Source of the DNA: Candidatus Hodarchaeota archaeon
GTDB taxonomy: Archaea > Asgardarchaeota > Heimdallarchaeia > Hodarchaeales > Hodarchaeaceae
Direction: 5' to 3'
NCBI GenBank assembly: GCA_016840035.1
Contig: JAEOTC010000190.1
Coordinates: 1 to 10,888 of the forward strand
DNA: 10,888 bases
Shown: positions 182 to 10,888 of the stretch, piece by piece
How positions within the stretch are numbered: position 1 is the first letter of the stretch
How the letters are laid out: the number at the start of each line of letters is the position of its first letter
Made by a program: the position numbers and the translations under genes
The notes under the pieces: model-generated
The model's database searches: none
What the model was told of the DNA's origin: nothing
The model's input: the letters and a program-made list of their open reading frames with translations, nothing else

Positions 182-254
182 ATTATATAGCAGATGTGAA
201 GAAAGGCCACATTGACGACATCTAGTTTCTCTTGGAAATGTCGTATAACCAACG
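182..254 (+). repeat. Dispersed direct repeat, copy 1 (internal ACGACAT/ATGTCGT inverted repeat, dif-like right end)
   Basis: 182-221 matches 8806-8845 at 36/40 nt. A variable 13-nt centre follows, then 235-254 GAAATGTCGTATAACCAACG is identical to 8861-8880. Confidence 0.95.
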
Positions 255-370
255 ACTTGTTCTTAAAAAAATTTGATTTAGGAGTGGTTTTTATTAATGC
301 ATAATAGACACACAAATATATCAGAGATTGAATTATTTTTGGTGAGTAAACGTGCCGTAAATAATGGAGT

Positions 371-514
371 ATGCTTCACTCCTTTCGCCGTTATTAAAGT
401 GAGATATTAGAAGAAGAAGAGATACTAGAGTATGTAATCGAAATGTCCAATGATGTGATGTTAATCCTTGAAGCTGGAGCCATTGCTTATATTCGACAAA
501 AAAGGCTGGATTAA
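371..514 (+). pseudogene. Probable decayed tyrosine recombinase/integrase C-terminal fragment
   Basis: Translates MLHSFRRY*SEILEEEEILEYVIEMSNDVMLILEAGAIAYIRQKRLD*. It has an HxxR motif, then L/VIEM in the same register as XerD HxLRHSFATHLL...VVQMLLGH, and a Tyr near the catalytic-Tyr position. There is an in-frame stop at 395-397 and the GH motif is absent. Confidence 0.4.
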
Positions 515-575
515 CCCCCGTTTAGAAAAAATATCTAGATATTCAAAAATAAAGTATTAAAATTCGATCTAGGCA

Positions 576-1853
576 TCAATATTTGGAATGATGCTCAGAA
601 ATTTGAATTTGATTGATCATTCTGTTCCAAGTGTGTAGAATTGCGAAACCTGCAGCAGCAACAATTAGTATTACAAGAAATGCAGGGATTAGTAAATCTT
701 CATCAATTTCAATACCAGAATATCGACTGGAATATCCAAGCTTGAACCCTAAATCATCTTCTGATTGCCAATTAATGTCTTTTGAAATATTATAAGGAAT
801 ATAATCATAATCAACAAATATGATAGTAATAAAAAGAATTGAAAATATCACAGCAAAAATACCAGATAAACTTATTGTTTCAATAAAACGGGTGAATTTA
901 GGGAATCCTGTGGTTATAGGAACTTCATGAGTTTTAAAGAAATGGGTAAAAGCAGGCAATCCTGTCGCCCCAAATGCTACCATCAATCTTCCGGCATGAA
1001 TGCTCGAAAATCCACATATAAGACCAAACCCGAAAATTCCACTTAAATAACATTCATAGTTATTAGCTGAAAGATTTTTATGCATACAGTCACTAGATAA
1101 CAAGTATACGACTCCAAATACTATAGAGATACCAATTCCTAGGGGAGAAAGATATATTCCTTCCTCATAGGTCATTATTGCCCACCAATATTTGCCAAGT
1201 AAAGGAATCGGGTCTAAAATAAATAAGATTATGTCTCGAAAAAGAGTTATTAGGATTAATACGGAGGAAGGAACTAATGCTAAAGTATATTTATTCAGTT
1301 TACTTAACAAGAATCCCACGATCGGTATGAATGGAACCATGATGGCGGTCTTATGGATTGTCCATGCAAATAACAAAAAAAACCCAGCTTTTTTGTATTG
1401 TTTATTATAATAGCTTTGAATTGCTAAAAGAGAAACTGCCGCGGATGATATTTGCCTTAAAGCGATACCAATAATGCCAAACATGAAGAAAAATAATATT
1501 ATAGTTCCGTCTTTTTCACCTTCTTCCAAACCTCTCATGAAGAAAAAAAGAGATCCATACGTGATTAGCGCGAGTATCATCCAAAATACTCTTGGTTCTC
1601 CAATTTTATTTGCTAAGAAATATATGGTTTCTGTTAACGGTTCTACTGGAGTTAGTTTTAAAACCGTTGCATTATTAATAATTTCCAAGTATCTGTTGAA
1701 GTCAGCTCCAACTTGCCATGCAAAAGCAGTCACTATTGTACAATAGATTAAAATTCCATATCTTATCACTTGATTTTTGTATTTAATGTTTATTATTCCA
1801 GCTAAAACTGGCATTAGATAAACAATAATAGTTCCAAATAAACCAAAAACCAT
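576..1853 (-). CDS. EpsG family (Wzy-like polysaccharide polymerase / GT-C-type) membrane protein
   Basis: 425 aa, multi-TM. EpsG-type motifs VGADFNRY, EP, LRQxxAA, AWTIHKTA and late YIPY. Confidence 0.8.
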   Translation of the reverse strand: MVFGLFGTIIVYLMPVLAGIINIKYKNQVIRYGILIYCTIVTAFAWQVGADFNRYLEIINNATVLKLTPVEPLTETIYFLANKIGEPRVFWMILALITYGSLFFFMRGLEEGEKDGTIILFFFMFGIIGIALRQISSAAVSLLAIQSYYNKQYKKAGFFLLFAWTIHKTAIMVPFIPIVGFLLSKLNKYTLALVPSSVLILITLFRDIILFILDPIPLLGKYWWAIMTYEEGIYLSPLGIGISIVFGVVYLLSSDCMHKNLSANNYECYLSGIFGFGLICGFSSIHAGRLMVAFGATGLPAFTHFFKTHEVPITTGFPKFTRFIETISLSGIFAVIFSILFITIIFVDYDYIPYNISKDINWQSEDDLGFKLGYSSRYSGIEIDEDLLIPAFLVILIVAAAGFAILHTWNRMINQIQISEHHSKY

Positions 1854-1972
1854 TTTTCTAACCTTAAATAGATATTATAATATGCTAAATTACAAATCTT
1901 GGGTATTCATCTAAAAATTTGCATTGTTGACTTGAGCTGAAATATAACATTATATATTCATATCTCTCCCTG

Positions 1973-2139
1973 CAAAGAATTCAATCTTCTCTTAAATAAA
2001 GACAGTTGTGAATAGGAAACGCGTCAAACACACGTTAGTAATGCTAGGATAAGTATCGACTTCGATATTTCATAAAGAAGATGAACTCTAAAACTCTGTC
2101 TAATTATTCTTACAAATAAATTTACTAGGAGTATTTACT
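1973..2139 (+). pseudogene. Possible IS3-family transposase remnant
   Basis: QRIQSSLK*R (1973-2002), frameshift, VVNRKRVKHTLVMLG* (2005-2052), later NLLGVFT (2119-2139). Resembles the IS3 OrfB pattern RRIxxxL...VNxKRVxRLMxxxGL...NLLxRxF. Multiple stops. Confidence 0.4.
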
Positions 2140-2147
2140 GGTGCTTT

Positions 2148-2192
2148 TTTAAGTATAATCAATGTTTAAATATAACCTCGGTTAAATGACAT
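2148..2192. other. dif-like putative recombination site: three 11-bp arms separated by 6-bp spacers
   Basis: TTTAAGTATAA-TCAATG-TTTAAATATAA-CCTCGG-TTAAATGACAT. The third arm is a 9/11 match to the reverse complement of the repeat arm ATGTCGTATAA. Confidence 0.45.
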
Positions 2193-2254
2193 CATATATA
2201 GGAACATGTATAGCTTCCTTAACGTATCCAAATCGGGAGATTCCTAGTAAGTTA

Positions 2255-2354
2255 TGTTCTTTTTGCAAATCCAGAAGTTTGAAACCGAATGGAACATTTG
2301 TTCGGAACGATTATTCAATTATCCAACGATATATCATAATCATGCCATACTTTC
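2255..2354 (+). pseudogene. Transposase-type zinc-ribbon remnant (IS1 InsA-like)
   Basis: CSFCKSRSLKPNGTFVRNDYSIIQRY (2255-2332), then SCHTF in a shifted frame (2340-2354). Matches the CxxCxS...NG...QRYxCxxCxxxF pattern with a frameshift. Confidence 0.55.
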
Positions 2355-2577
2355 GCCGTAATACTTAATGCTGATTGTACCATTATTCAGGGTTCATTCA
2401 AATTTATTCTGGAGGTCCTCGTTCGATTATCTTTTGAATTTCCTTCAAAGAACACCGTTCGGAAAAACCCGAGAAAATATCTACCAGAAACGAAATCCTT
2501 TAAGTTATTAATTCTCTTTCCTTTGATTTGTGATGTAGCTGTCGTCTCTAAGACCAACGTCAAGAATAGCCCAAAGA

Positions 2578-3789
2578 GTGCCCTCTTCATTGAATTTGGA
2601 TGTCATATATGTCTTACTTGCGATGATGATTTTTAATATTCCTTGGGGATTAGTTCAGCCTTTTATCAGTCCATATTTTTTCGAACTTACCCAGGGAGAT
2701 TATTGGTTAACAGGATTACTTAATGGAATCCCTTTTACTACTATGGTTATTTCTGTATTTTTCTTTGGGTGGGTAGTTGATAAGATTGGTGCGAAAATAG
2801 TAATGATACTTGCATTTATTCTGTTCATCATCCTTTTTATAACATTACTATTTATTACTGATCCTTTTTTAATTTTTTTGGACTACATTATTCTAAATGG
2901 ACTGTTAGCTTGCTTTTCACCCGCAGTAATGAAATATGCGAGTTTAGTTAAAACAGAAATGAACATTTTTGGTGCGTTAGGAGCATCAACCTCCTTTGGT
3001 TACTTCATTGGGTCATTTCTCGGGGGATTGTTGTATGATCTATTAAGTATGAGAGTTTTATACCTTCTTGGCCTTGGTTCATGTGCTATTGGGCTAATTC
3101 TTACTATAAAAATGCGAAATATTCGACATTCAGAAGAGTATGACATGAAGAATAATCTGGAGGAAAACCTCAAAGACGATTCTCCCGATTTAACTGTTCA
3201 TTCACAATCTCTTCTCACATCTCTGATAAATTCGAAGTTGGTGCTTGGCATCTTCATCATTGCATTTCTTCAAACGCTTCAAGGTTCTTTTTCAGGAATG
3301 TTTGTATCTGTGTATCTTATATCTGAGTTGAAGGCGCCATCAGTGATCATTGGAGTATCTTACGGGATTGCTACTTTATCGGGGACATTTGCAGCTCATT
3401 ATGCTGGAAGATTTGGGAGTAAATTCGGATACAAAACGATCCTTTTAATCTGTTATGCAGGTTATTTCATTGTTTGGATTGCATTTTTTATTTCAACAGC
3501 AAATTTTCTGTTACCAGCTCTGGCTTATACGCTCCCCATATTTGTTGGACTAATGGTAGCAGGCCCCGCTATCGTAACTCAGTATATTCAGGAAGATCAG
3601 CGTGGGACAGTAATGGGAATATTCTCAGCTTGTCAGTACTTGGGTTTAGGGATCGGTACTATATTGGGTGGGTACTATGCTGGAATCCAATCCACAATTC
3701 ATTCTAATTTTGCAGTTTCAGCATTTATAACCGTTATACTCTTTCTTTTCGTTCTTCTCTTCTTTAAAAATGATAAGAAGATAGAATAA
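2578..3789 (+). CDS. Major facilitator superfamily transporter
   Basis: 403 aa, about 12 TM, with a central hydrophilic loop. Motif A-like GWVVDKIGAK and GRFGSKFGYK; QRGTVMG. The GTG start is uncertain because the frame is open back to 2539. Confidence 0.92.
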   Translation: MPSSLNLDVIYVLLAMMIFNIPWGLVQPFISPYFFELTQGDYWLTGLLNGIPFTTMVISVFFFGWVVDKIGAKIVMILAFILFIILFITLLFITDPFLIFLDYIILNGLLACFSPAVMKYASLVKTEMNIFGALGASTSFGYFIGSFLGGLLYDLLSMRVLYLLGLGSCAIGLILTIKMRNIRHSEEYDMKNNLEENLKDDSPDLTVHSQSLLTSLINSKLVLGIFIIAFLQTLQGSFSGMFVSVYLISELKAPSVIIGVSYGIATLSGTFAAHYAGRFGSKFGYKTILLICYAGYFIVWIAFFISTANFLLPALAYTLPIFVGLMVAGPAIVTQYIQEDQRGTVMGIFSACQYLGLGIGTILGGYYAGIQSTIHSNFAVSAFITVILFLFVLLFFKNDKKIE

Positions 3790-3813
3790 CCAACTTTTCT
3801 TCAGGCTTATTCC

Positions 3814-4554
3814 TTAACTTTTCTTGAGCTTTTTAATTTGCTCATCTAAAGTCTTTAAAATTTCCTCAGTAGTGATGATATTGGCATAAAATAATTCCAT
3901 AGCTCTCAACGAAGCATTATGTAAAGTAGGGGACCACCCCGCACACGCATCATCAACCACAAAAACATTAAAACCTAAATCTGAAGCTATCCTTGTGGTA
4001 TTTTCTACACACATATGAGTAACAACACCAACGATTATTACTGTATCTACCCCTAAACTACGTAGTTGATGCTCGAGATCTGTTGAACTAAATGTACCAC
4101 TGGTAGTTTTAAGAATAATTGTATCAGTATCCTTCGGATTTAACTCATGTATAATATCTGCTAGAGGATCTTGAATGGATGGGAATAGATATTTGCCAAT
4201 CATGTTTTTGGAAAACTCATTTATGGTCCGAATATTTTTTGCATAGTCGTTACAATCCCTTCTACGACATGCGAATTTTGTATAGTATACTGGAATGTTA
4301 TTTTTCCTAAAAAACTCTGACAAGCGAGAAATATTTGGATTTACTATTTCGTCAACACGTTTTAAAAAATATTCAAGCATGCCAGGAACAAGTTTTTCGT
4401 TTAATTCAATGATCGGTGAGGTTTCTTTCACTTGATAATTTTGCATATCAATGATTACGAGAGCAGAACTCTGAGGATTAATAGATGGTTGAATCTGCCT
4501 TTTATTTGTTAGATACTGTTCAATTTTCTCTTCTAATTCCATTTTATTCACCAT
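3814..4554 (-). CDS. Isochorismatase-family cysteine hydrolase
   Basis: ALVIIDMQ (Asp), LKTTSGTF (Lys) and GVVTHMCVENTTR (Cys) form the catalytic triad; VVDDACA. Confidence 0.93.
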   Translation of the reverse strand: MVNKMELEEKIEQYLTNKRQIQPSINPQSSALVIIDMQNYQVKETSPIIELNEKLVPGMLEYFLKRVDEIVNPNISRLSEFFRKNNIPVYYTKFACRRRDCNDYAKNIRTINEFSKNMIGKYLFPSIQDPLADIIHELNPKDTDTIILKTTSGTFSSTDLEHQLRSLGVDTVIIVGVVTHMCVENTTRIASDLGFNVFVVDDACAGWSPTLHNASLRAMELFYANIITTEEILKTLDEQIKKLKKS

Positions 4555-4667
4555 TTGTTTAATTCAGTTCGTAATAATCGCAGAACTCGTTAGTGATTAA
4601 AGCTATTTAAGCATGATAATTCCTATCAATAAAAATTAATTAAAATACAGTAATGAATTTTTAAGCC

Positions 4668-5552
4668 ATGATTAGTTTAAAAATAAAAGCAATTTTTGGA
4701 TCAATAATCCTTTTCATTGTTATGTTCATTCTAATTGGCCTAAATAATTTGGATTCAATCCTTTATGAGCCATTAATAACTCCAGAAAGGTGGCTAAAGT
4801 CTCAACCATGGATAAAACTCGAAATTTTTACGTTTGATGCAGTAATAGTGCAACCTACTTCAACCATTCTGGTTTTTTCTTTAGGGTTTCTTACTATAGG
4901 AATTGGAATTTCAATTTTATCTACTCTAGAAGATCAGAAATCCCTAGAATGGTGGGGTTACGCGTTATTGTTATGGGGATTAGGAGCATTATTTGCAGGG
5001 ACAAGTTATCAAATATTCAGCTATGAAATAAAGTGCGTGGGAAGATCCTATTGCCTTTGGACTAGCTGGTGGGAGATTTTTTACATGATCCTTACTGTTG
5101 GTAGTGTTAACGCCATGATGGTTGCTCAAGCATATACTTGCTTAGAAGGAAAAAGAAGAAAAGGAGTTTTTATTGCGTCAGGAGTAATTTGGAGTCTTTA
5201 TGTCGTAATTTCCCTTTTAGGAAGTATAATACCTATAAGATTCCTCATTTCGTTTGAATTATTAGTAATTTTCCTTATCCCGATCTTTATCTTCTTTTTT
5301 ATTCTTAATTTCTGGAGATATCGAATAAATAGAAGCAAGGTGGATCTTTCTCTAATCTATATATGGTTATCTCTCGGTTTGATAATGTTAGTATATTTCC
5401 TTTATCTGACGGGAGGCGTAACAGATTTATTGTGGGAAATGGGGATATGGTTCTCTGAGAATGATGTGTTACATATCGGGTTAATTTTCTGGATGTTATT
5501 TATTAATAGAAATATAAAAAGACATTTAGGAGATTATCATTCTATTAGATAA
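4668..5552 (+). CDS. Multi-pass membrane protein of unknown function (DUF6962/CREST-like)
   Basis: 294 aa, about 8 TM. QPTST near TM2 and FSENDVLH near the last TM recall DUF6962-like proteins; the family call is tentative. Confidence 0.7.
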   Translation: MISLKIKAIFGSIILFIVMFILIGLNNLDSILYEPLITPERWLKSQPWIKLEIFTFDAVIVQPTSTILVFSLGFLTIGIGISILSTLEDQKSLEWWGYALLLWGLGALFAGTSYQIFSYEIKCVGRSYCLWTSWWEIFYMILTVGSVNAMMVAQAYTCLEGKRRKGVFIASGVIWSLYVVISLLGSIIPIRFLISFELLVIFLIPIFIFFFILNFWRYRINRSKVDLSLIYIWLSLGLIMLVYFLYLTGGVTDLLWEMGIWFSENDVLHIGLIFWMLFINRNIKRHLGDYHSIR

Positions 5553-5590
5553 ATTCCATTGATGCTAATTTCCAGTGTAATTTATCTTTT
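5547..5590 (+). terminator. Hairpin overlapping the stop codon, followed by a T-run
   Basis: AGATAAATT (5547-5555) pairs perfectly with AATTTATCT (5579-5587). A further 5 bp pair inward (CATTG/CAGTG, one G-T), then TTT. Confidence 0.45.
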
Positions 5591-5608
5591 ACTGATAGTC
5601 TGCACTTT

Positions 5609-5636
5609 CCTTAACCTAACCAACGTTATAGTATAA
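5609..5636. other. dif-like putative recombination site sharing the CCAACG spacer with the long repeats
   Basis: CCTTAACCTAA-CCAACG-TTATAGTATAA has a TAA-N6-TTA core. It is enclosed by the imperfect inverted repeat TTTCCTTAAC (5606-5615) / GTTAGGGAAA (5650-5659). Confidence 0.45.
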
Positions 5637-5710
5637 CAGGCACCTTAAAGTTAGGGAAATTCATTTCATCACTGAAATGTTTATAGATTCATTTTAAATC
5701 TAATAAGGAC

Positions 5711-5754
5711 TAGTTAAGTCAGTAACATTCAGTAGTTAAGTCAGTAACATTCAA
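5711..5754 (+). repeat. 22-bp tandem repeat, 2 copies
   Basis: TAGTTAAGTCAGTAACATTCAG / TAGTTAAGTCAGTAACATTCAA (21/22 identical). Further CATTCA at 5766 and 5781. Confidence 0.93.
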
Positions 5755-5848
5755 TAATTGCAAATCATTCACTTCCTGAACATTCACGTTTATTCGGAAA
5801 ATCTGGTAATAATTGTCTAGTACCCAATAACTGTTCTGGAAACATTAT

Positions 5849-6784
5849 TCATAGAATTTTGGCCCACATATTCATGGGTACTTTTCTACTAAACCCTGTA
5901 GCTTCATAGATTAAGTTATTTTCGTCATGAATGTCGCTCTCAACCACACATACCATATTAGGTTGATACTTGGTCAAACGTTCTAAGCCTTCGCAAACAA
6001 GAGCGGTTTTCAAATCTAAGTGTAAGTACTTTGGATGAACACCTAAGAGTTCTAGCTCAGCTATCTTTGTACGAGGATCAAAACGAAAAGTACAAAACGC
6101 AGCAAACTCCCCATCAGCAGTAACCGCAACTAGATTGAGATCTGGATGGTAAAATTCTGCCTCCCTCATAAAGGCAAATTTCTCGCTAGACATGTTTTCT
6201 CTGCAATGGGGGAGAACAGAGCCCACAACATCAATATAGGCTGAATAATCGTCGTTTCCTTCAATGTTTCGTATTGTGAATCCTTGGGGAAGTATATAAT
6301 TTGGTATAGAACTCTCCTTTGGGCGAATATAATTGAACTCATGAAGACCCAAATCCTGGTAATTTAATTCCTCTAAAGTCGTTCTACGAACAGGATCTGT
6401 AGTAACAGTATAATGAATAAGGCGTAATTCTCCCTTCAAACTAGGATTTCTTTCTTGTTCGATTTTTTCTAGGATTAAAAAGAGATCACGTTCAAAATGC
6501 TTGTATTGGGGATGGATTTCGATGTGATAATTACGGGCTGAACCTCGGTGACTTACAGCGATGATTTTGGAATTGGAATCAGCCACTTTTTCTTTTAATT
6601 TCCATATCGAGATGTCCTCGTCATCTTTTCTCGTATAAGACGTCCCACAAGGTCCATATTTATGATTTTCAATTTTTATTGGAATGAGATAGTGAAGAAC
6701 ACTGGATTCTCGATATACGTCTAATAGGAAGTCACGAACCTCATTTAAATCATTATCAAAACTGAATGAACACCGTGATAGCAT
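5849..6784 (-). CDS. Two-domain GNAT-fold N-acetyltransferase-like protein (degenerate acetyl-CoA motif)
   Basis: LPQGFTIR, DGEFAAFC, ELELLGVHPKY and IYEATGF are typical of tandem GNATs. Confidence 0.85.
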   Translation of the reverse strand: MLSRCSFSFDNDLNEVRDFLLDVYRESSVLHYLIPIKIENHKYGPCGTSYTRKDDEDISIWKLKEKVADSNSKIIAVSHRGSARNYHIEIHPQYKHFERDLFLILEKIEQERNPSLKGELRLIHYTVTTDPVRRTTLEELNYQDLGLHEFNYIRPKESSIPNYILPQGFTIRNIEGNDDYSAYIDVVGSVLPHCRENMSSEKFAFMREAEFYHPDLNLVAVTADGEFAAFCTFRFDPRTKIAELELLGVHPKYLHLDLKTALVCEGLERLTKYQPNMVCVVESDIHDENNLIYEATGFSRKVPMNMWAKIL

Positions 6785-6835
6785 TTTTTGGAACCGCTTG
6801 TCCTTCTTGAGAAGTTAAAAAAAATTTTTACGTAT

Positions 6836-7786
6836 TTAAGAGTCTTCATATATCCAGAATTTAGCTCCTTGCTCTTCACTTATTTTAAACCCTAGTTTCT
6901 TGTAGTATTTAATGGCTGGATTAGTAAGGACTATACTTGTTGTCACTTCTTTTGCATTATGTTTGTTGAAGTATTCCTTAGTTCCTTGGATCATTGCCTT
7001 TCTCAGACTTAATCCATCTGGAAATTCTAGATCTAAGATCATCCCCTCAAAGTTCCCGTACACTGTGGTATCTTCCTGGCCTCTCTCTGCGGGTGAATAT
7101 TTTCCTGCATGAATGTATCCCTTTAATTCTCCTTTCCAGTAGACGAGGAAAGAATCTTCTGACGACATCTCTCCGTTATCAAATCTTTCTGTCAAATTCT
7201 CTACTGTAACTTCTTCCCCGACAATACTTTCTTTGGATTTACGGTATGTTGCTAATGCTGAAAAATCCTCTTTTGTCAATGGTTTGATTTCAAATTCCGG
7301 CGATAGTTGATAATCTATTTCGTTTATAGCAAGACGCATTTCTCGAGCATCTTGAACCTCAGTCACTTTGGCTATTTTCTGGTTTTTGAAATACTCATGG
7401 GCTTTCTTGAAATCAAACGCGTAATGTGATTCGATCGTTCCTGGATTTTTTTTACAATCTTCTTTGGCAAATTCATAGATTGCTTTGAACAGTCGATCCA
7501 CGGTTTCTTTCGATCGATATTCCTTTAATATTAATGGATAGAAAATACCATGGAAGCCTCCATTAATCCGACATTCGGTATACCCTACAATCTTCTGCTC
7601 TTGATCTACTAGATATTGAACTTGCTTTGGATTAAAATTTGGGTCTTCATGACGTTTCTGAACCTTTTCTGCTGTGATTAGTACGGGTTCAGGTATCATT
7701 TCCACAATGACTGTGTTAAATATTTCTGCCTGGGCAGTTTCATCCCCTTTTTCATAATTACGGATTGTTAAACTTTCTTGGACCAT
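6836..7786 (-). CDS. Two-domain GNAT family N-acetyltransferase
   Basis: IRNYEKGDE, KIVGY, EIKPLTKED, GELKGY and NPAIKYYKKLGF. Confidence 0.87.
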   Translation of the reverse strand: MVQESLTIRNYEKGDETAQAEIFNTVIVEMIPEPVLITAEKVQKRHEDPNFNPKQVQYLVDQEQKIVGYTECRINGGFHGIFYPLILKEYRSKETVDRLFKAIYEFAKEDCKKNPGTIESHYAFDFKKAHEYFKNQKIAKVTEVQDAREMRLAINEIDYQLSPEFEIKPLTKEDFSALATYRKSKESIVGEEVTVENLTERFDNGEMSSEDSFLVYWKGELKGYIHAGKYSPAERGQEDTTVYGNFEGMILDLEFPDGLSLRKAMIQGTKEYFNKHNAKEVTTSIVLTNPAIKYYKKLGFKISEEQGAKFWIYEDS

Positions 7787-7845
7787 TTTTGTTCTTTCCT
7801 TATTCTTGAATATTGAAATGTGTGTTGGAATTTCTTGATCTGTTG

Positions 7846-7914
7846 ATCATTCCATTTAAATTGGAATCATTCAACTATATCTTGAATGATACAATAAGGC
7901 TTTTATTCATTCAA
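7846..7914. promoter_or_regulatory. Array of palindromic operator-like sites with 20-bp period in a divergent promoter
   Basis: ATCATTCCA-N7-TGGAATCAT (7846-7870), perfect ATCATTCAA-N7-TTGAATGAT (7866-7890), ATGATACAA (7886) and TTCATTCAA (7906). Confidence 0.7.
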
Positions 7915-8000
7915 AAGGTATTTAATCTTTACTATATTGGCATAAAATGTAGTTCAAACCACGTATTGGCCTTTCACACTATTTTTGCGTTGCGATTACA

Positions 8001-8702
8001 ATGGATGAAAAACGAGAAATATTATACAGTTTTTGGGAATCACTTCCTCCACTGAAGATTGTTTCGAAACCAGAGGAAGAGGTCTACGGTCACAGAGTGC
8101 GATTACATGTTATTCAAATATTACGTAAAGGAATTTTAGATCAATTAGATAAAAATCGAAGACGTAGGGCTCTAAACGCGAGAGAAATATTATCAATTCT
8201 AAAGGAGATGCCGATGGAGGAGAAGAAAGACGAAGAAGAAGCGTCCAAAACGAAAGATATCAGCTTACAAAGTCTTTACTTTCATTTACAGAAACTCGAA
8301 GAAGCAGAATTAGTCCAGACTGTTACCATTTTACGAAAAGGAAATCATAACACAGCATACTACGGCAGAACTGCACGGATCTACCTCCACACTGATCCTG
8401 TAAAAAAAGAAAAAAAGATTTCTCAGGCTTTTTCTGCAATTAAACAATTTGCAAAAGTAAAAAATCCGGGATTGAACGAGAGTGAAATCGATGATTTTCG
8501 TGAGAGGTATCTTTCTCGTGAAAAACAGCGAAGTGAAAGAATCTCCAAATGGTTTGTCCAATATGAATCCCTAATTGTAGAGAACAATATTGATCTGACC
8601 TCTTTTTTCCAATTTATGGAAATTATCGACACAATTAATCCTGAGACTATTCAAATCCTCAAGGAATTGCGAGATACATTAAATTTTGAATCCTTACCCT
8701 AA
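8001..8702 (+). CDS. ArsR-like winged helix-turn-helix transcriptional regulator
   Basis: HRVRLHVIQIL...ALNAREIL...ISLQSLYFHLQKLEEAELV...YYGRTA; divergent from the GNAT pair. Confidence 0.85.
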   Translation: MDEKREILYSFWESLPPLKIVSKPEEEVYGHRVRLHVIQILRKGILDQLDKNRRRRALNAREILSILKEMPMEEKKDEEEASKTKDISLQSLYFHLQKLEEAELVQTVTILRKGNHNTAYYGRTARIYLHTDPVKKEKKISQAFSAIKQFAKVKNPGLNESEIDDFRERYLSREKQRSERISKWFVQYESLIVENNIDLTSFFQFMEIIDTINPETIQILKELRDTLNFESLP

Positions 8703-8805
8703 GAAGATCAGAGCTGGACACTTTCGCTAGTACCTTGAAAAATCCCTCAAGAGTAAATTGAATAGATAGCACTGGTCAGACGATAAGGTATTCTTTTCTG
8801 TTCAA

Positions 8806-8880
8806 ATTATATAACAGATTTGAATAAGGGCCACATTGACGACATTCGAATATTATATCAGAAATGTCGTATAACCAACG
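8806..8880 (+). repeat. Dispersed direct repeat, copy 2
   Basis: See copy 1. 15-nt variable centre (8846-8860); 8-bp stem ACGACATT (8839-8846) / AATGTCGT (8863-8870). Confidence 0.95.
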
Positions 8881-8994
8881 CTTAGAAATGTTAAATAATT
8901 AATAGATTTAATGCAATCTTCCTTAACAGGAACTATGCGAACAGCCATATCATACTTACCTTGACTGCATCTGGTCTTGAAGACCTTGTTGAGG

Positions 8995-9024
8995 CTACAT
9001 TATAGTGGATGTTACTTAATGTAG
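8995..9024 (-). terminator. Stem-loop downstream of the DUF4386-like gene
   Basis: CTACATTA (8995-9002) / TAATGTAG (9017-9024) plus inner AGT/ACT, 16 nt past the stop. No clear U-tract. Confidence 0.35.
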
Positions 9025-9040
9025 GGAGGGTGCTAGACAT

Positions 9041-9703
9041 TTAGCCTAGTTTGTAGAGTTTAGCACCGATGACTATTTGCCAGATGCCTGTTAGAATCAA
9101 TCCAAATGGTGTTCCTATAGTCAGGGGCTCCAGTAAGACTCCGAAGGTGCCTACTACAATCAGGGTGCCTGCCACAATGACCAAGTAAGCTGTACGTTTG
9201 CTGAAAACTCCCTTCAGCATAACTAGGCCTATAATGACAGATCCGACGCCTAAGAGGGCCAAGGCCATGACAGTATACACACCTGATACTTCAAGTGCAA
9301 GGTGTGCCGTTGCTAAGTAAGCTGCTCTCATGGTTGCATCTGTTGTTGCTGCATAACTATCACTAATTGCAACAAGTGAAATTACTAGTCCACGAGAGAT
9401 TAGAAACATTGGTGTAGCAACTAAAAACACTGCAGTTCCTAGAAATACCTGATTCTTATTAACATCCTTTAGAGAGAAGTAGAGTCCCAGAACTCCAGGC
9501 ATCAGAAGAAACTCTCCGAAAGCAGCTAAGGAAAATAGAAGGGCTGGCTGTAGGGGGGCATCAAGAACTGATTGTGCGGTTAGTGGAAGTTGTACTTGAA
9601 GTATGAATACTAAGAGAAGGAATATGATAACGATGGCTCCACCTGTGAGTAAGGAGAGTCCACTCACCTTATACACTCCTTTCCAAGATGAATCTACGCT
9701 CAA
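9041..9703 (-). CDS. DUF4386-like membrane protein
   Basis: 220 aa, about 6 TM, with WKGVYKVSG, LGLYFSLK, SDSYAATTD and MLKGVFSKRTAYL. TTG start with GAGG upstream. Confidence 0.75.
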   Translation of the reverse strand: MSVDSSWKGVYKVSGLSLLTGGAIVIIFLLLVFILQVQLPLTAQSVLDAPLQPALLFSLAAFGEFLLMPGVLGLYFSLKDVNKNQVFLGTAVFLVATPMFLISRGLVISLVAISDSYAATTDATMRAAYLATAHLALEVSGVYTVMALALLGVGSVIIGLVMLKGVFSKRTAYLVIVAGTLIVVGTFGVLLEPLTIGTPFGLILTGIWQIVIGAKLYKLG

Positions 9704-9717
9704 AATTATTGCCTCGT

Positions 9718-9801
9718 CTATAATTGAATTATGAGTTTTCCTTTGACATGACCTTTTTCAAGATAGCGGATTGCATCTGGAACCTGCTTCAAATCCAAGG
9801 T
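9718..9801 (-). pseudogene. C-terminal remnant of an MDR-family NAD(P)-dependent alcohol dehydrogenase / quinone oxidoreductase
   Basis: TLDLKQVPDAIRYLEKGHVKGKLIIQL* matches the typical MDR C-terminus (L..VP.A.RYLE.GH..GK.VI). An in-frame TGA lies directly upstream (9802-9804). Confidence 0.8.
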
Positions 9802-9953
9802 TCAAAAACTAGTATAACTTGAGTTCCTAAAGATTAAATAGTGAAATGAATATTATTAGTTGTACTTTTACCAATGCTAACTGGAATAACTTCTTATTCG
9901 AAAGGGTTTTTCCTTCTGTTATCGTGATACTTTTCGTAGAAGGATTTGGACCC

Positions 9954-10888
9954 ATGGAAATATTAATCATTGGTGGAACAGGATTTCTTGGTTATCACTC
10001 CCTACTCGAGTTCAGAAAAAAAGGTCATTCAGTAAACACAATTGCAATACCTGATGTAGAACTAGGAGATTGGTTTCCAAAGGAAGTGGAGGTGAAGTAT
10101 GTAAATGTCTTTGAACAGGAGGAACGTGTACTTCAAGAATTATTAGGTAATTACGATGTGTTAGTGTACGCGGTAGGGCCAGATGATCGTGTTACTCCTC
10201 CAGCCCCTGCCTACGAGTTTTTTCATGAGAGATTGGTGAATTCTTGTGGAAAGGTAGTTGATGCCGCACGAAACGCAGGTATTAAACGATGTGTTGTTCT
10301 AAGTTCGTATTTTGCCTATTTTGATAGGATTTGGCCTGAATTAAGGTTAGCAGAGAATCACCCATATATTAAATGTCGTGTTGAACAAGCAGACCGAGTT
10401 ATTCAAGCAGGTCAAGGTAAAATGGATGTAATAATCCTTGAGCTTCCCTACATTTTTGGGTCAATGCCAGGTAGAATCCCATTATGGAAAGAGGTACTAC
10501 TTGATCGGATACTGAAAATGAAAATAGTCTTCTTTCCTAAAGGAGGAACGAATATGATTGCAGTGCAACATGTAGCAGAAGCGATAGTTGGAGCAGTTGA
10601 ACGAGGGGAACATGGTCAGAGATATTTAATTGGAGATATTAATTTATCTTGGAAAGAAATGTTGAATATCATTTTCAACACTTTAGGAATGAGGAAAAGA
10701 GTGATTACAATTCCTACATTCCTAGCTGCATTTTATGGAAAACGACTGAAGAAATTAGAAAAAAAAGAGGGAAAAGAAAGTGGTCTTGATTTAGCCCGAT
10801 TATTTCAAGATATACAATCGAAAGAACTCTATTATGATCCAAGTGAAACCGCGGAGAAGTTAGGATATAATCGATCTGGATTACAGAA
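9954..10888 (+). CDS. NAD-dependent epimerase/dehydratase family (extended SDR), truncated by window end
   Basis: MEILIIGGTGFLG Rossmann motif; VVLSS, HPYIKCR, ELPYIFG, GGTNMIAVQHVAEA and GQRYLIG. Not in the ORF track because it has no stop in the window. Confidence 0.9.
   Translation, partial: MEILIIGGTGFLGYHSLLEFRKKGHSVNTIAIPDVELGDWFPKEVEVKYVNVFEQEERVLQELLGNYDVLVYAVGPDDRVTPPAPAYEFFHERLVNSCGKVVDAARNAGIKRCVVLSSYFAYFDRIWPELRLAENHPYIKCRVEQADRVIQAGQGKMDVIILELPYIFGSMPGRIPLWKEVLLDRILKMKIVFFPKGGTNMIAVQHVAEAIVGAVERGEHGQRYLIGDINLSWKEMLNIIFNTLGMRKRVITIPTFLAAFYGKRLKKLEKKEGKESGLDLARLFQDIQSKELYYDPSETAEKLGYNRSGLQ

Follow-up and report, generated by a model that had tools for sequence, protein, structure and literature searches.

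The window, the whole stretch of 10,888 nt that was analysed, derives from an Asgard archaeon, in line with the probably archaeal host of the original prediction. Its gene blocks comprise EpsG, MFS, GNAT1, GNAT2 with wHTH, a 220-aa membrane protein (labelled DUF4386 in that prediction) and an epimerase. Five related recombinase-type sites had been proposed in the intergenic gaps, and a scan of the window confirmed all five sequences, at 238-254 (site A), 2148-2192, 5609-5636, 8864-8880 (site B) and 9807-9823. The core attributed to four of them, TAAYCAAYG, occurs four times in the window, each time on the + strand and in an intergenic gap. About 0.5 occurrences are expected at the genome-wide rate (Poisson P of 0.015 for at least three and 0.002 for at least four), figures to be read with two of the four occurrences not being independent. 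The enrichment of the core over background did not materialize: the genome contains 200 occurrences where 210-238 would be expected, and intergenic-like DNA contains 25 where 24 would be. As had been noted correctly, a full TAA-N6-TTA core is present at just two of the sites, yet this pattern, with eight occurrences in the window, is not diagnostic.

Sites A and B are the right-hand ends of a direct repeat of 73-75 nt (182-254 and 8806-8880), composed of 40 nt at 90% identity, 13-15 variable nt and 20 nt at 100% identity, with no further copies in the 4.3-Mb assembly (n = 2). The repeat is longer than had first been noted. Copy A, on the + strand, begins with a conserved, TATA-like 5' module, ATTATATAGCAG (182-193), common to copy B and to the 'L2' variant of the element in relatives. 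A worn 11-6-11 site (site I) follows at 194-221, with a left arm matching the consensus at 7/11 positions, the spacer GGCCAC and a right arm at 10/11. The linker (222-237), whose first 13 nt are unlike the corresponding 15 nt of copy B and whose closing GAA is found in both, leads to the left arm of site II (11/11) and its fixed spacer CCAACG at 238-254, where the right arm is missing (1/11). Repeat comparison gives the same order for copy B, also on the + strand, with the 5' module ATTATATAACAG (8806-8817), a worn site I (8818-8845; left arm 5/11, spacer GGCCAC, right arm 10/11) and the left arm of site II with spacer CCAACG (8864-8880; left arm 11/11, right arm missing at 4/11). Both copies lie between convergent gene ends.

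Joined to the core of copy A is a promoter-like, BRE/TATA-like module (255-284, + strand), and the same module is found in relatives 81-104 nt ahead of the start codons of unrelated genes. The 5' remnant of a carboxylesterase gene follows at 352-398 (+ strand); the gene is intact in G008:C35 and G011:C11, and here its third codon is a stop and the homology ends at 395. The 17-mer of sites A and B has 32 matches with at most one mismatch in 22 genomes of the same genus, against 0 for the reversed control, the pattern of a real conserved element. A composite repeat of roughly 70 nt, specific to this Asgard genus, is present in the window as two decayed copies, at about 179-266 and 8803-8892, and the two ATGTCGTATAA-CCAACG sites form their right ends. 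Arm scoring against the family consensus found no complete 11-6-11 site among the sites of the window and no spacer with two good arms; the window copies would be relics, each retaining two good arms that face apart.

The remaining three sites, all on the + strand, are of other kinds. The site at 5609-5636 is a lone site II core, with the exact core TAACCAACG at 5617-5625 between weak arms (4/11 and 7/11), and its right flank has a copy of 96% identity in G017 and a close copy at a site in G010. The sequence at 2148-2192 holds the variant core TAATCAATG and one arm-like 11-mer (2182-2192; 9/11), and sits in a gap built of conserved short modules and gene remnants. The one at 9807-9823, ahead of the epimerase gene, has no core; visual comparison suggests a likeness to the promoter-like module, with TTGAGTTCC followed by TAAAGA and then TTAAATAG. 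Neither 2148-2192 nor 9807-9823 gives a score with the element model, their arms agree with the family consensus at 6-9 of 11 positions, and both are promoter-like or remnant DNA outside the family. Three members of the proposed single family of five survive, A and B as worn copies and 5609-5636 as a lone core.

The composite element, as its copies in relatives indicate, is a pair of inverted-repeat sites of 28 bp, each with 11-6-11 geometry. The anticipated tyrosine-recombinase-type geometry is present in relatives (11-nt inverted arms, strict 6-nt spacer) and lacks a complete example in the window. Site I is ATGTCGTCAAA-N6-TTTGACGACAT, with conserved arms and a variable 6-nt spacer, and site II is the A/B left arm with its fixed CCAACG spacer, followed by a looser right arm ending in GACAT. 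This architecture occurs at about 25 loci, and a covariance model of the composite element has matches in 19 of 22 genus genomes at E ≤ 0.1. In the genome of the window (G000), nine site I copies match at 16 or more of 18 positions with a spacer of 6, against 0 in the reversed genome, and other spacer lengths yielded one such site (spacer 4). Among intergenic 9-mers, that of the site I arm is one of the most enriched (15 occurrences against an expected 2.4). With G000 included, 21 of 22 genus genomes carry the palindrome (20 of 21 without it), and 61 genomes of other genera yielded two weak matches, so that the 28-bp family is, by these matches, limited to one Asgard genus among the genomes compared. 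Genomes carry about 1-9 palindromes each, in addition to site II cores clustered in variable islands. G010 has stretches of 61 kb with 11 cores and of 3.3 kb with 4; in G011, 5 cores, all co-oriented, fall within 19 kb. Sites with the same spacer recur across several species, for example those with TGCCAG, CAGATA and CCGTTG. An apparent site with spacer CAAGAC, seen again in at least eight other genus genomes, was rejected as coding sequence.

At arm positions 6, 7 and 8, a variant in one arm has its mirror image in the other at 0 of 20, 0 of 20 and 1 of 29 sites, respectively. Because the arms vary independently of each other, they are regarded as duplex half-sites, not hairpin stems, and the pattern of variation shows, at the level of sequence, half-sites in duplex DNA for a putative protein pair across exactly 6 bp. 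Apart from the left arm of site II, the arms do not show the inner ATAA/TTAT symmetry seen in known dif sites.

XerA is the likeliest binder, because its gene keeps a near-perfect arm immediately ahead of the start codon. Of 19 genus genomes, 16 have an arm of 10/11 positions or better between -18 and -42 nt relative to that codon (nine of these arms are perfect), a count drawn from related and so not independent genomes; in G013, the match is 9/11. The arm occurs there in two orientations, while the surrounding DNA diverges. The whole of G000 contains three perfect arms, and single arms are not enriched in it (96 versus 116 in the control). XerA orthologues are present in 19 of the 22 genus genomes, and the G000 gene (C174, 10000-10887) reaches 272.6 bits against the 220-bit cut-off of the curated model recomb_XerA_Arch. 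G001 and G017 have palindromes and no arm at the unusual 428-aa open frame that holds their XerA match. The predicted recombinase connection holds insofar as the arm motif is tied by position to the xerA gene of the genus, and XerA probably binds the dif-like palindromes, the evidence for this being the position of the arm. The binding protein would then be the genus's own XerA tyrosine recombinase, the palindromes would be dif-like XerA sites in multiple copies, and the arm beside xerA would be an operator for autoregulation.

Insertion of an ISH3-family insertion sequence (IS) is the sole demonstrated DNA transaction at the palindromes. The IS, 1279-1280 bp long, has CAGT at its termini, duplicates 4 bp of its target and encodes a DDE transposase (PF01609) whose best NCBIfam family is ISH3, at a score of 110.9, below the curated cut-off of 225. 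At 36 of 49 independent IS ends, an arm (8/11 or better) ends exactly 5 nt from the tip; 13 other arm-to-tip offsets gave 0 each, except for one end at 15 nt. In five of six complete copies, the duplicated 4 bp are those at the centre of the spacer. The IS inserts exactly in the middle of the spacer and duplicates its central 4 bp, and flank swapping at the 17-mer is accounted for by the inserted IS. The ISH3 family comprises elements of 1225-1500 bp with CRGT termini and 4-5 bp direct repeats flanked by A and T (De Palmenaer et al. 2008, PMC2266710), features with which the 1280-bp length, CAGT termini, 4-bp duplication and DDE transposase seen here agree. Targeting of a 28-bp palindrome is not among these family features (PMC2266710). 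Insertion into the centre of the palindrome offers a clean and testable instance of sequence-specific targeting by an archaeal DDE transposase, and a possible tool. Such targeting is rare.

The original prediction further held that the sites divide the window into modules. The window blocks occur singly in relatives without flanking sites, with a core within 1.5 kb at 1 of 12 relatives' loci and a composite element at 0 of 12. Of the synteny breakpoints, those at 2056-2067, 8705-8747 and 9793 fall 14-98 nt away from proposed sites, and those at 3776-3785, 5840, 6796-6846 and 9020 have no site. A search of relatives for an orthologous empty site found none. The dif-like part of the proposal is partly upheld, and a role of the sites in delimiting mobile gene modules is unproven.

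The overall explanation, that the window holds relic copies of a genus-specific, dif-like composite repeat that is XerA-bound and IS-targeted and has no proven module role, is in our judgment about evenly poised between right and wrong. That the likeness of the five sites arose by chance in AT-rich intergenic DNA is extremely improbable; the unenriched core, the commonness of TATAA-type strings (GTATAAY occurs ten times in the window) and the failure of 2148-2192 and 9807-9823 in the element model would fit it, but A and B have 73-75 nt in common, the 17-mer finds 32 matches across the genus against none for its control, and the flank of 5609-5636 is kept in other species. Chance is ruled out for A, B and 5609-5636, and stands for 2148-2192 and 9807-9823. 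It is also unlikely that a dimeric transcription factor, and not XerA, uses the palindromes as operators, with a regulon of xerA and accessory genes and the promoter-like module in the same control region. Protein operators typically combine conserved arms with a variable spacer; at xerA, the arm overlaps the promoter or start region; at G000:C47, site I and site II are followed directly by a BRE/TATA-like module and a gene; and the promoter-like module keeps a fixed distance of 81-104 nt ahead of unrelated genes. The arm centres, however, are 17 bp apart, a spacing that suits recombinase monomers better than most helix-turn-helix dimers, and the lone half-site at xerA suits monomer binding; moreover, many elements lie between convergent gene ends or inside open frames, and no conserved neighbouring regulator gene was found beside them. 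That the elements are selfish REP/BIME-like or MITE-like mosaic repeats, spread or merely targeted by the ISH3-like transposase and without host function, is favoured by their dispersal as discrete units of about 68 nt with homology stopping at their borders, by their varied combinations of short modules and by the many copies near contig ends. Bacterial REPs are likewise specific insertion targets of IS (Tobes and Pareja 2006, PMC1525189), and the resemblance extends to short extragenic mosaic palindromes, often between convergent genes, that a dedicated IS uses as its insertion site. This origin is nonetheless decidedly improbable: copy number is 1-9 per genome, not hundreds; single sites recur with the same spacer in several species; the arms are conserved half-sites without compensatory changes, and so not hairpins; the IS ends are not recovered with the arm profile; the RAYT/Y1 transposase (PF01797) is found in just one of five genomes tested and absent from four; the host is archaeal and the IS belongs to ISH3, not IS3/IS110; and the conserved arm at xerA is left unexplained.

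Active recombination, as originally proposed, would make the sites, above all the fixed-spacer site II cores, places at which a XerA-like recombinase inserts, excises and exchanges modules, an archaeal counterpart of pdif modules or cassette arrays; we regard this as improbable. The spacer CCAACG is kept while the arms decay, a pattern to be expected if recombination partners must share the crossover region. Cores lie in the variable islands of G010 and G011, co-oriented in the latter, different left and right modules join exactly at the core (window homology to G008:C35, for instance, begins at 244), and a species-specific gene of G000:C47 lies between two co-oriented cores, one of them degenerate (ATCCAACG). 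Weighing against it are the window genes found in relatives without flanking cores, the four breakpoints without a site, the want of two good arms around any window spacer, mixed gene orientation and the absence of a recombinase gene from the window and the G011 array. The clearest flank swaps, besides, are caused by the IS, and recombination between IS copies followed by IS loss through identical CAAC duplications could yield the same mosaics. Set against the XerA/dif explanation, the fixed site II spacer, the mosaic core flanks and the island clustering also fit active recombination. The pdif modules of Acinetobacter plasmids, which have inverted XerC/D-XerD/C pairs at their borders, are found intact in many settings, and IMEX elements exploit Xer. 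The sites studied here resemble both in that several dif-like sites occupy one replicon beside accessory genes and in site II cores that have one spacer and cluster in variable regions, but those of the window are incomplete and in direct orientation, and relatives carry the same genes without them. The co-oriented, conserved sites between unrelated genes in the G011 island recall integron attC arrays, from which they differ in the lack of IntI next to the arrays and of an R''/L''/L'/R' structure, in mixed gene orientation and in long intergenic gaps; PF00589 has no match in C163 or the G011 array, and by eye the cores do not fit GTTRRRY/RYYYAAC. A doubtful extension is that the genus may run a multi-site XerA system of scattered, variable-spacer dif-like sites, in which fixed-spacer (CCAACG) sites would be shared landing pads for accessory genes, often with their own promoter module, as an archaeal chromosomal counterpart of pdif or integrons, with the ISH3-family IS specialized on the same sites.

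The preferred reading, that of relic dif-like repeats bound by XerA, invites comparison with archaeal XerA/dif, a chromosome-dimer resolution system (Cortez et al. 2010, PMC2958812); the half-site at xerA differs from the arrangement in Thermococcales, where dif is not adjacent to xerA (PMC2958812). Shared with XerA/dif are imperfect 11-bp inverted repeats with a 6-bp spacer (in the family in relatives and elsewhere in G000), a cognate XerA orthologue in 19 of 22 genus genomes that passes the curated model, and conservation of sites among related species, whereas several sites per genome (1-9) replace the one canonical dif, which is located in the replication termination region, and site I spacers vary between copies. 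At a Xer/dif site the recombinase binds the arms and cleaves where they meet the spacer. If XerA binds these sites, they would be the first archaeal case of dif-like sites multiplied within one chromosome; we know of no earlier one. Asgard genomes have a large variable gene content, and such binding would give a concrete handle on accessory-gene shuffling in them.

Resolution sites upstream of their own recombinase gene are familiar from Tn3 res-tnpR and from the TnpI of Tn4430 and Tn5401. The likeness here lies in a putative recombinase-type binding motif in the promoter region of a recombinase gene and in two adjacent sub-sites forming a composite element; the differences are the single half-site at xerA and the lack of a transposon context. 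Serine-resolvase res sites differ further, as the genus has serine recombinases only sporadically; PF00239 has no match in G011 or G019 and just a fragment in G000, so that the distribution of serine recombinase does not follow that of the sites. A half-site so close to the start of xerA suggests that this archaeal Xer gene is autoregulated, and inspecting the xerA promoter would be a simple way to predict dif-type arms in uncultured archaea.

The window corresponds to the entire contig C163 (10,888 nt) of the source assembly G000, which comprises 4.3 Mb in 293 contigs at 36% G+C, and the public genomes nearest to it are Asgard MAGs carrying the labels Promethearchaeota, Hermodarchaeota or Hodarchaeota. 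It carries genes for EpsG (576-1853, minus strand), an MFS transporter (2578-3789, plus), an isochorismatase (3814-4554, minus), a membrane protein without a Pfam family (4668-5552, plus), two GNAT proteins (5849-6784 and 6836-7786, both minus), an HTH_20 protein (8001-8702, plus), a 220-aa membrane protein (9041-9703, minus) and an epimerase (9846-10886, plus). The predicted gene list was recovered for all but one member, the supposed DUF4386 protein being the 220-aa membrane protein, which has no Pfam hit. This gene forms, with 90 nt of upstream DNA (9020-9793), a multi-copy unit with at least four copies in the genome G010 at 88-92% identity, most with a sharp end at 9793. A 67-aa open frame at 2387-2590 (minus) is what is left of the 3' end of a gene resembling that at G000:C47:5397-6287, and over its final 64-72 nt several genomes, one of them (G032) from another family, agree with it at 92-98% identity. 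Searches of the window for tRNAs and Rfam families returned none.

All five sequences proposed as Xer/dif-like sites were found where they had been placed, and the TAAYCAAYG core occurs four times in the window, always intergenic and on the plus strand. The core is locally over-represented (4 against 0.5 expected per window). Genome-wide it is unenriched, with 200 occurrences against 210-238 expected and 25 against 24 expected in intergenic-like DNA, which is the first of the two outcomes that the original prediction had named as refuting it. The sites at 238-254 and 8864-8880 are no short coincidences, being the ends of a direct repeat on the plus strand, 182-254 (copy A) and 8806-8880 (copy B), in which the first 40 nt agree at 90%, the next 13-15 nt vary and the last 20 nt are identical. 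No further copy was found in the G000 assembly. A similar arrangement was observed at locus L177 (G009:C121), where the window's repeat variant, with its GAAGAAAGGCCA stretch, is partly present twice (458-505 and 5917-5946); the two partial copies are directly oriented and have 5.4 kb with unrelated genes between them, mirroring the window's 8.6-kb pair.

The 17-mer ATGTCGTATAACCAACG has 32 matches at no more than one mismatch across the 22 genomes of the Asgard archaeal genus that includes G000, with none for the reversed control. The aligned contexts reveal a composite element. Its site I is an inverted pair of 11-nt arms (consensus ATGTCGTCAAA) separated by 6-7 nt; after a 5-18-nt linker comes site II, made up of ATGTCGTATAA, the invariant spacer CCAACG and, in many copies, a less strict right arm that ends in GACAT. 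A covariance model built from ten copies (cut-off E ≤ 0.1) matches in 19 of the 22 genomes, with up to eight copies each, many of the matches being weak; on the window it recovers the two repeat copies alone, which score 57.8 and 55.6 bits, the next match reaching 11.7 bits. The site I palindrome occurs nine times in G000 at 16 or more of 18 matching positions, always with a 6-nt spacer, against none in the reversed genome and a single occurrence (spacer 4) at all other spacer lengths. Across the class, it is present in 20 of the 21 other genus genomes, with two weak matches among 61 genomes of other genera. These sites constitute a real, genus-specific family of dif-like 11-6-11 sites. RAYT-driven REPs were rejected as their nature. 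Viral contigs were rejected as carriers, their 4 and 3 exact matches being at chance level; three viral 17-mer matches inspected lay in ordinary-looking sequence with neither arms nor site I nearby. A perfect palindrome with the spacer CAAGAC (G000:C114:48874-48897), found again in at least eight other genus genomes with an identical or almost identical spacer, was discarded as a true dif because it falls within the frame of a coiled-coil protein; its conservation is that of coding sequence rather than of a site. The site I arm ranks among the most enriched intergenic 9-mers of G000. Other 9-mers stand far above it, among them GTCCTCTCG (18 against 0.9) and TTTGTCGGA (18 against 3.4), and point to further repeat families in the genome.

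Measured against this family, neither copy in the window is a complete 11-6-11 site. The left arm of site I is worn to 7/11 positions in copy A and 5/11 in copy B, with a right arm of 10/11 in each, and the left arm and spacer of site II are perfect in both copies, its right arm being missing (1/11 and 4/11). In the tests run, the proposed five-site family reduces to copies A and B as relics and to 5609-5636 as a lone core, exact, with weak arms; G017 and G010 conserve its right flank. The remaining two do not belong: 2148-2192 lies within a gap of short conserved modules and a 3' gene remnant, and 9807-9823 has no core and, judged by eye, resembles the promoter-like module described below. 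In the gap after 5609-5636, a 22-nt unit (TAGTTAAGTCAGTAACATTCAG) is tandemly duplicated at 5711-5754.

A hairpin in RNA or single-stranded DNA was considered as the reason for the inverted arms and rejected, the alignment fold amounting to -1.35 kcal/mol with no compensatory pairs. Variants at variable arm positions were mirrored in the partner arm in 0/20, 0/20 and 1/29 cases (47 sites with distinct spacers). As the fold is negligible and variants are almost never mirrored, the arms are independent, sequence-specific half-sites at a fixed distance, in agreement with the tyrosine-recombinase-type geometry of the original prediction, and the palindrome is a duplex DNA site for a protein pair.

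Each well-covered genus genome encodes one tyrosine recombinase of about 300 aa above the cut-off of the NCBI curated archaeal XerA model; in G000 its gene is at C174:10000-10887. Directly upstream of the xerA start codon, an arm of at least 10/11 is present in 16 of 19 genus genomes (nine perfect), and one more genome has an arm at 9/11. One species group has it at -18 to -31 and another at -36 to -42 in the opposite orientation, the surrounding DNA differing. The perfect arm of G000 at C174:10898-10908 (locus L190; the xerA loci of other genomes are L191-L206) is one of only three perfect arms in 4.3 Mb; single arms overall showed no enrichment. From this position in related genomes, we infer that XerA may bind the arm, regulate its own gene and act as partner of the palindromes; the dif-like family is probably bound by XerA. 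The XerA of P. abyssi is active in vitro with no partner protein (PMC2958812). A second tyrosine recombinase was dismissed as partner, with no arms or cores nearby, and serine resolvase sites were likewise rejected. In two species (G001:C5:210964-212121 and G017:C16:37599-38753) the XerA match lies inside a 428-aa open frame with two partly overlapping XerA matches and no upstream arm.

The flanks of the 17-mer appear shuffled: a single left flank continues into one right flank in G002 and into another in G014, and a single right flank follows three different left flanks. This appearance arises because the recurring right flank is an insertion sequence (IS) of 1280 bp (L058:78-1356, G014:C201) with CAGT termini and a 392-aa DDE transposase, whose best family is ISH3, in agreement with published traits of that family. 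Of 49 independent IS ends drawn from many genomes, 36 have an arm of at least 8/11 that stops exactly 5 nt short of the tip; 13 further offsets were tested and gave a count of 0, save one at 15 nt. The 4-bp duplication is the centre of the 6-nt spacer in five of six complete copies, and insertions in site II show the expected flanks ccaac and cgttg. In G000 the IS occupies three contig ends (C35:20191, C188:41535 and C143:5895), each 5 nt from an arm. This ISH3-family IS targets the 28-bp palindromes and inserts in their exact centre, the sole DNA transaction demonstrated for them. IS copies break assemblies at these points, explaining why many element copies lie near contig ends. Kinship of the arms with the IS terminal repeats was rejected, as the arm profile fails to single out IS ends.

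The original prediction went further, reading the sites as boundaries of gene modules. That these are active recombination sites at which a tyrosine recombinase such as XerA inserts, excises or exchanges modules is unlikely, even though the site II spacer stays constant as its arms wear down, cores are strongly clustered in variable islands and are co-oriented in G011, differing left and right modules join exactly at the core, and a species-specific gene in G000:C47 lies between two cores, one degenerate. In the closed genome G010, clustered cores lie at 228-294 kb and at 3.074-3.078 Mb. Each relative has a single window block only (EpsG, MFS, GNAT1, GNAT2 with wHTH, membrane protein or epimerase), and at 11 of 12 of these loci no core lies within 1.5 kb, the composite element being absent from all of them; several synteny breakpoints lack any site, those near a site merely sharing its intergenic gap. 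No orthologous empty site was found for the 8.6-kb interval, whose left-flank gene has only 32-36% paralogues, or for the core-bracketed gene of G000:C47, for which relatives have no homologous flanks. In these tests the module inference was not borne out. The same mosaics could arise if IS copies sitting in different cores recombined homologously and the IS was then lost through its identical duplications; one IS copy with mismatched duplications is consistent with such exchange.

In copy A the core adjoins a BRE/TATA-like module. This promoter-like module, about 55 nt long, spans 246-300 of the window and recurs at 13 loci in relatives; its parts are the core, ACTTGTTCC, an A-run and a box resembling TTGATATAGGAA. 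The genes that follow it are unrelated to one another (toxin-like, flavodoxin-like, GNAT, esterase and oxidoreductase), and in about eight loci its distance from the start codon is fixed at 81-104 nt. It looks like a mobile promoter; a general promoter consensus was rejected, with only one clear copy in G000. An integrated element with a split or decayed integrase at 275-514 was also rejected, since stops fill all three frames and C163 has no PF00589 signal. Instead, 275-514 combines the promoter-like module with the opening codons of a carboxylesterase gene, of which G008:C35 and G011:C11 have intact copies; the remnant at 352-398 covers the first 15 or so codons, codon 3 being a stop, with homology stopping at 395.
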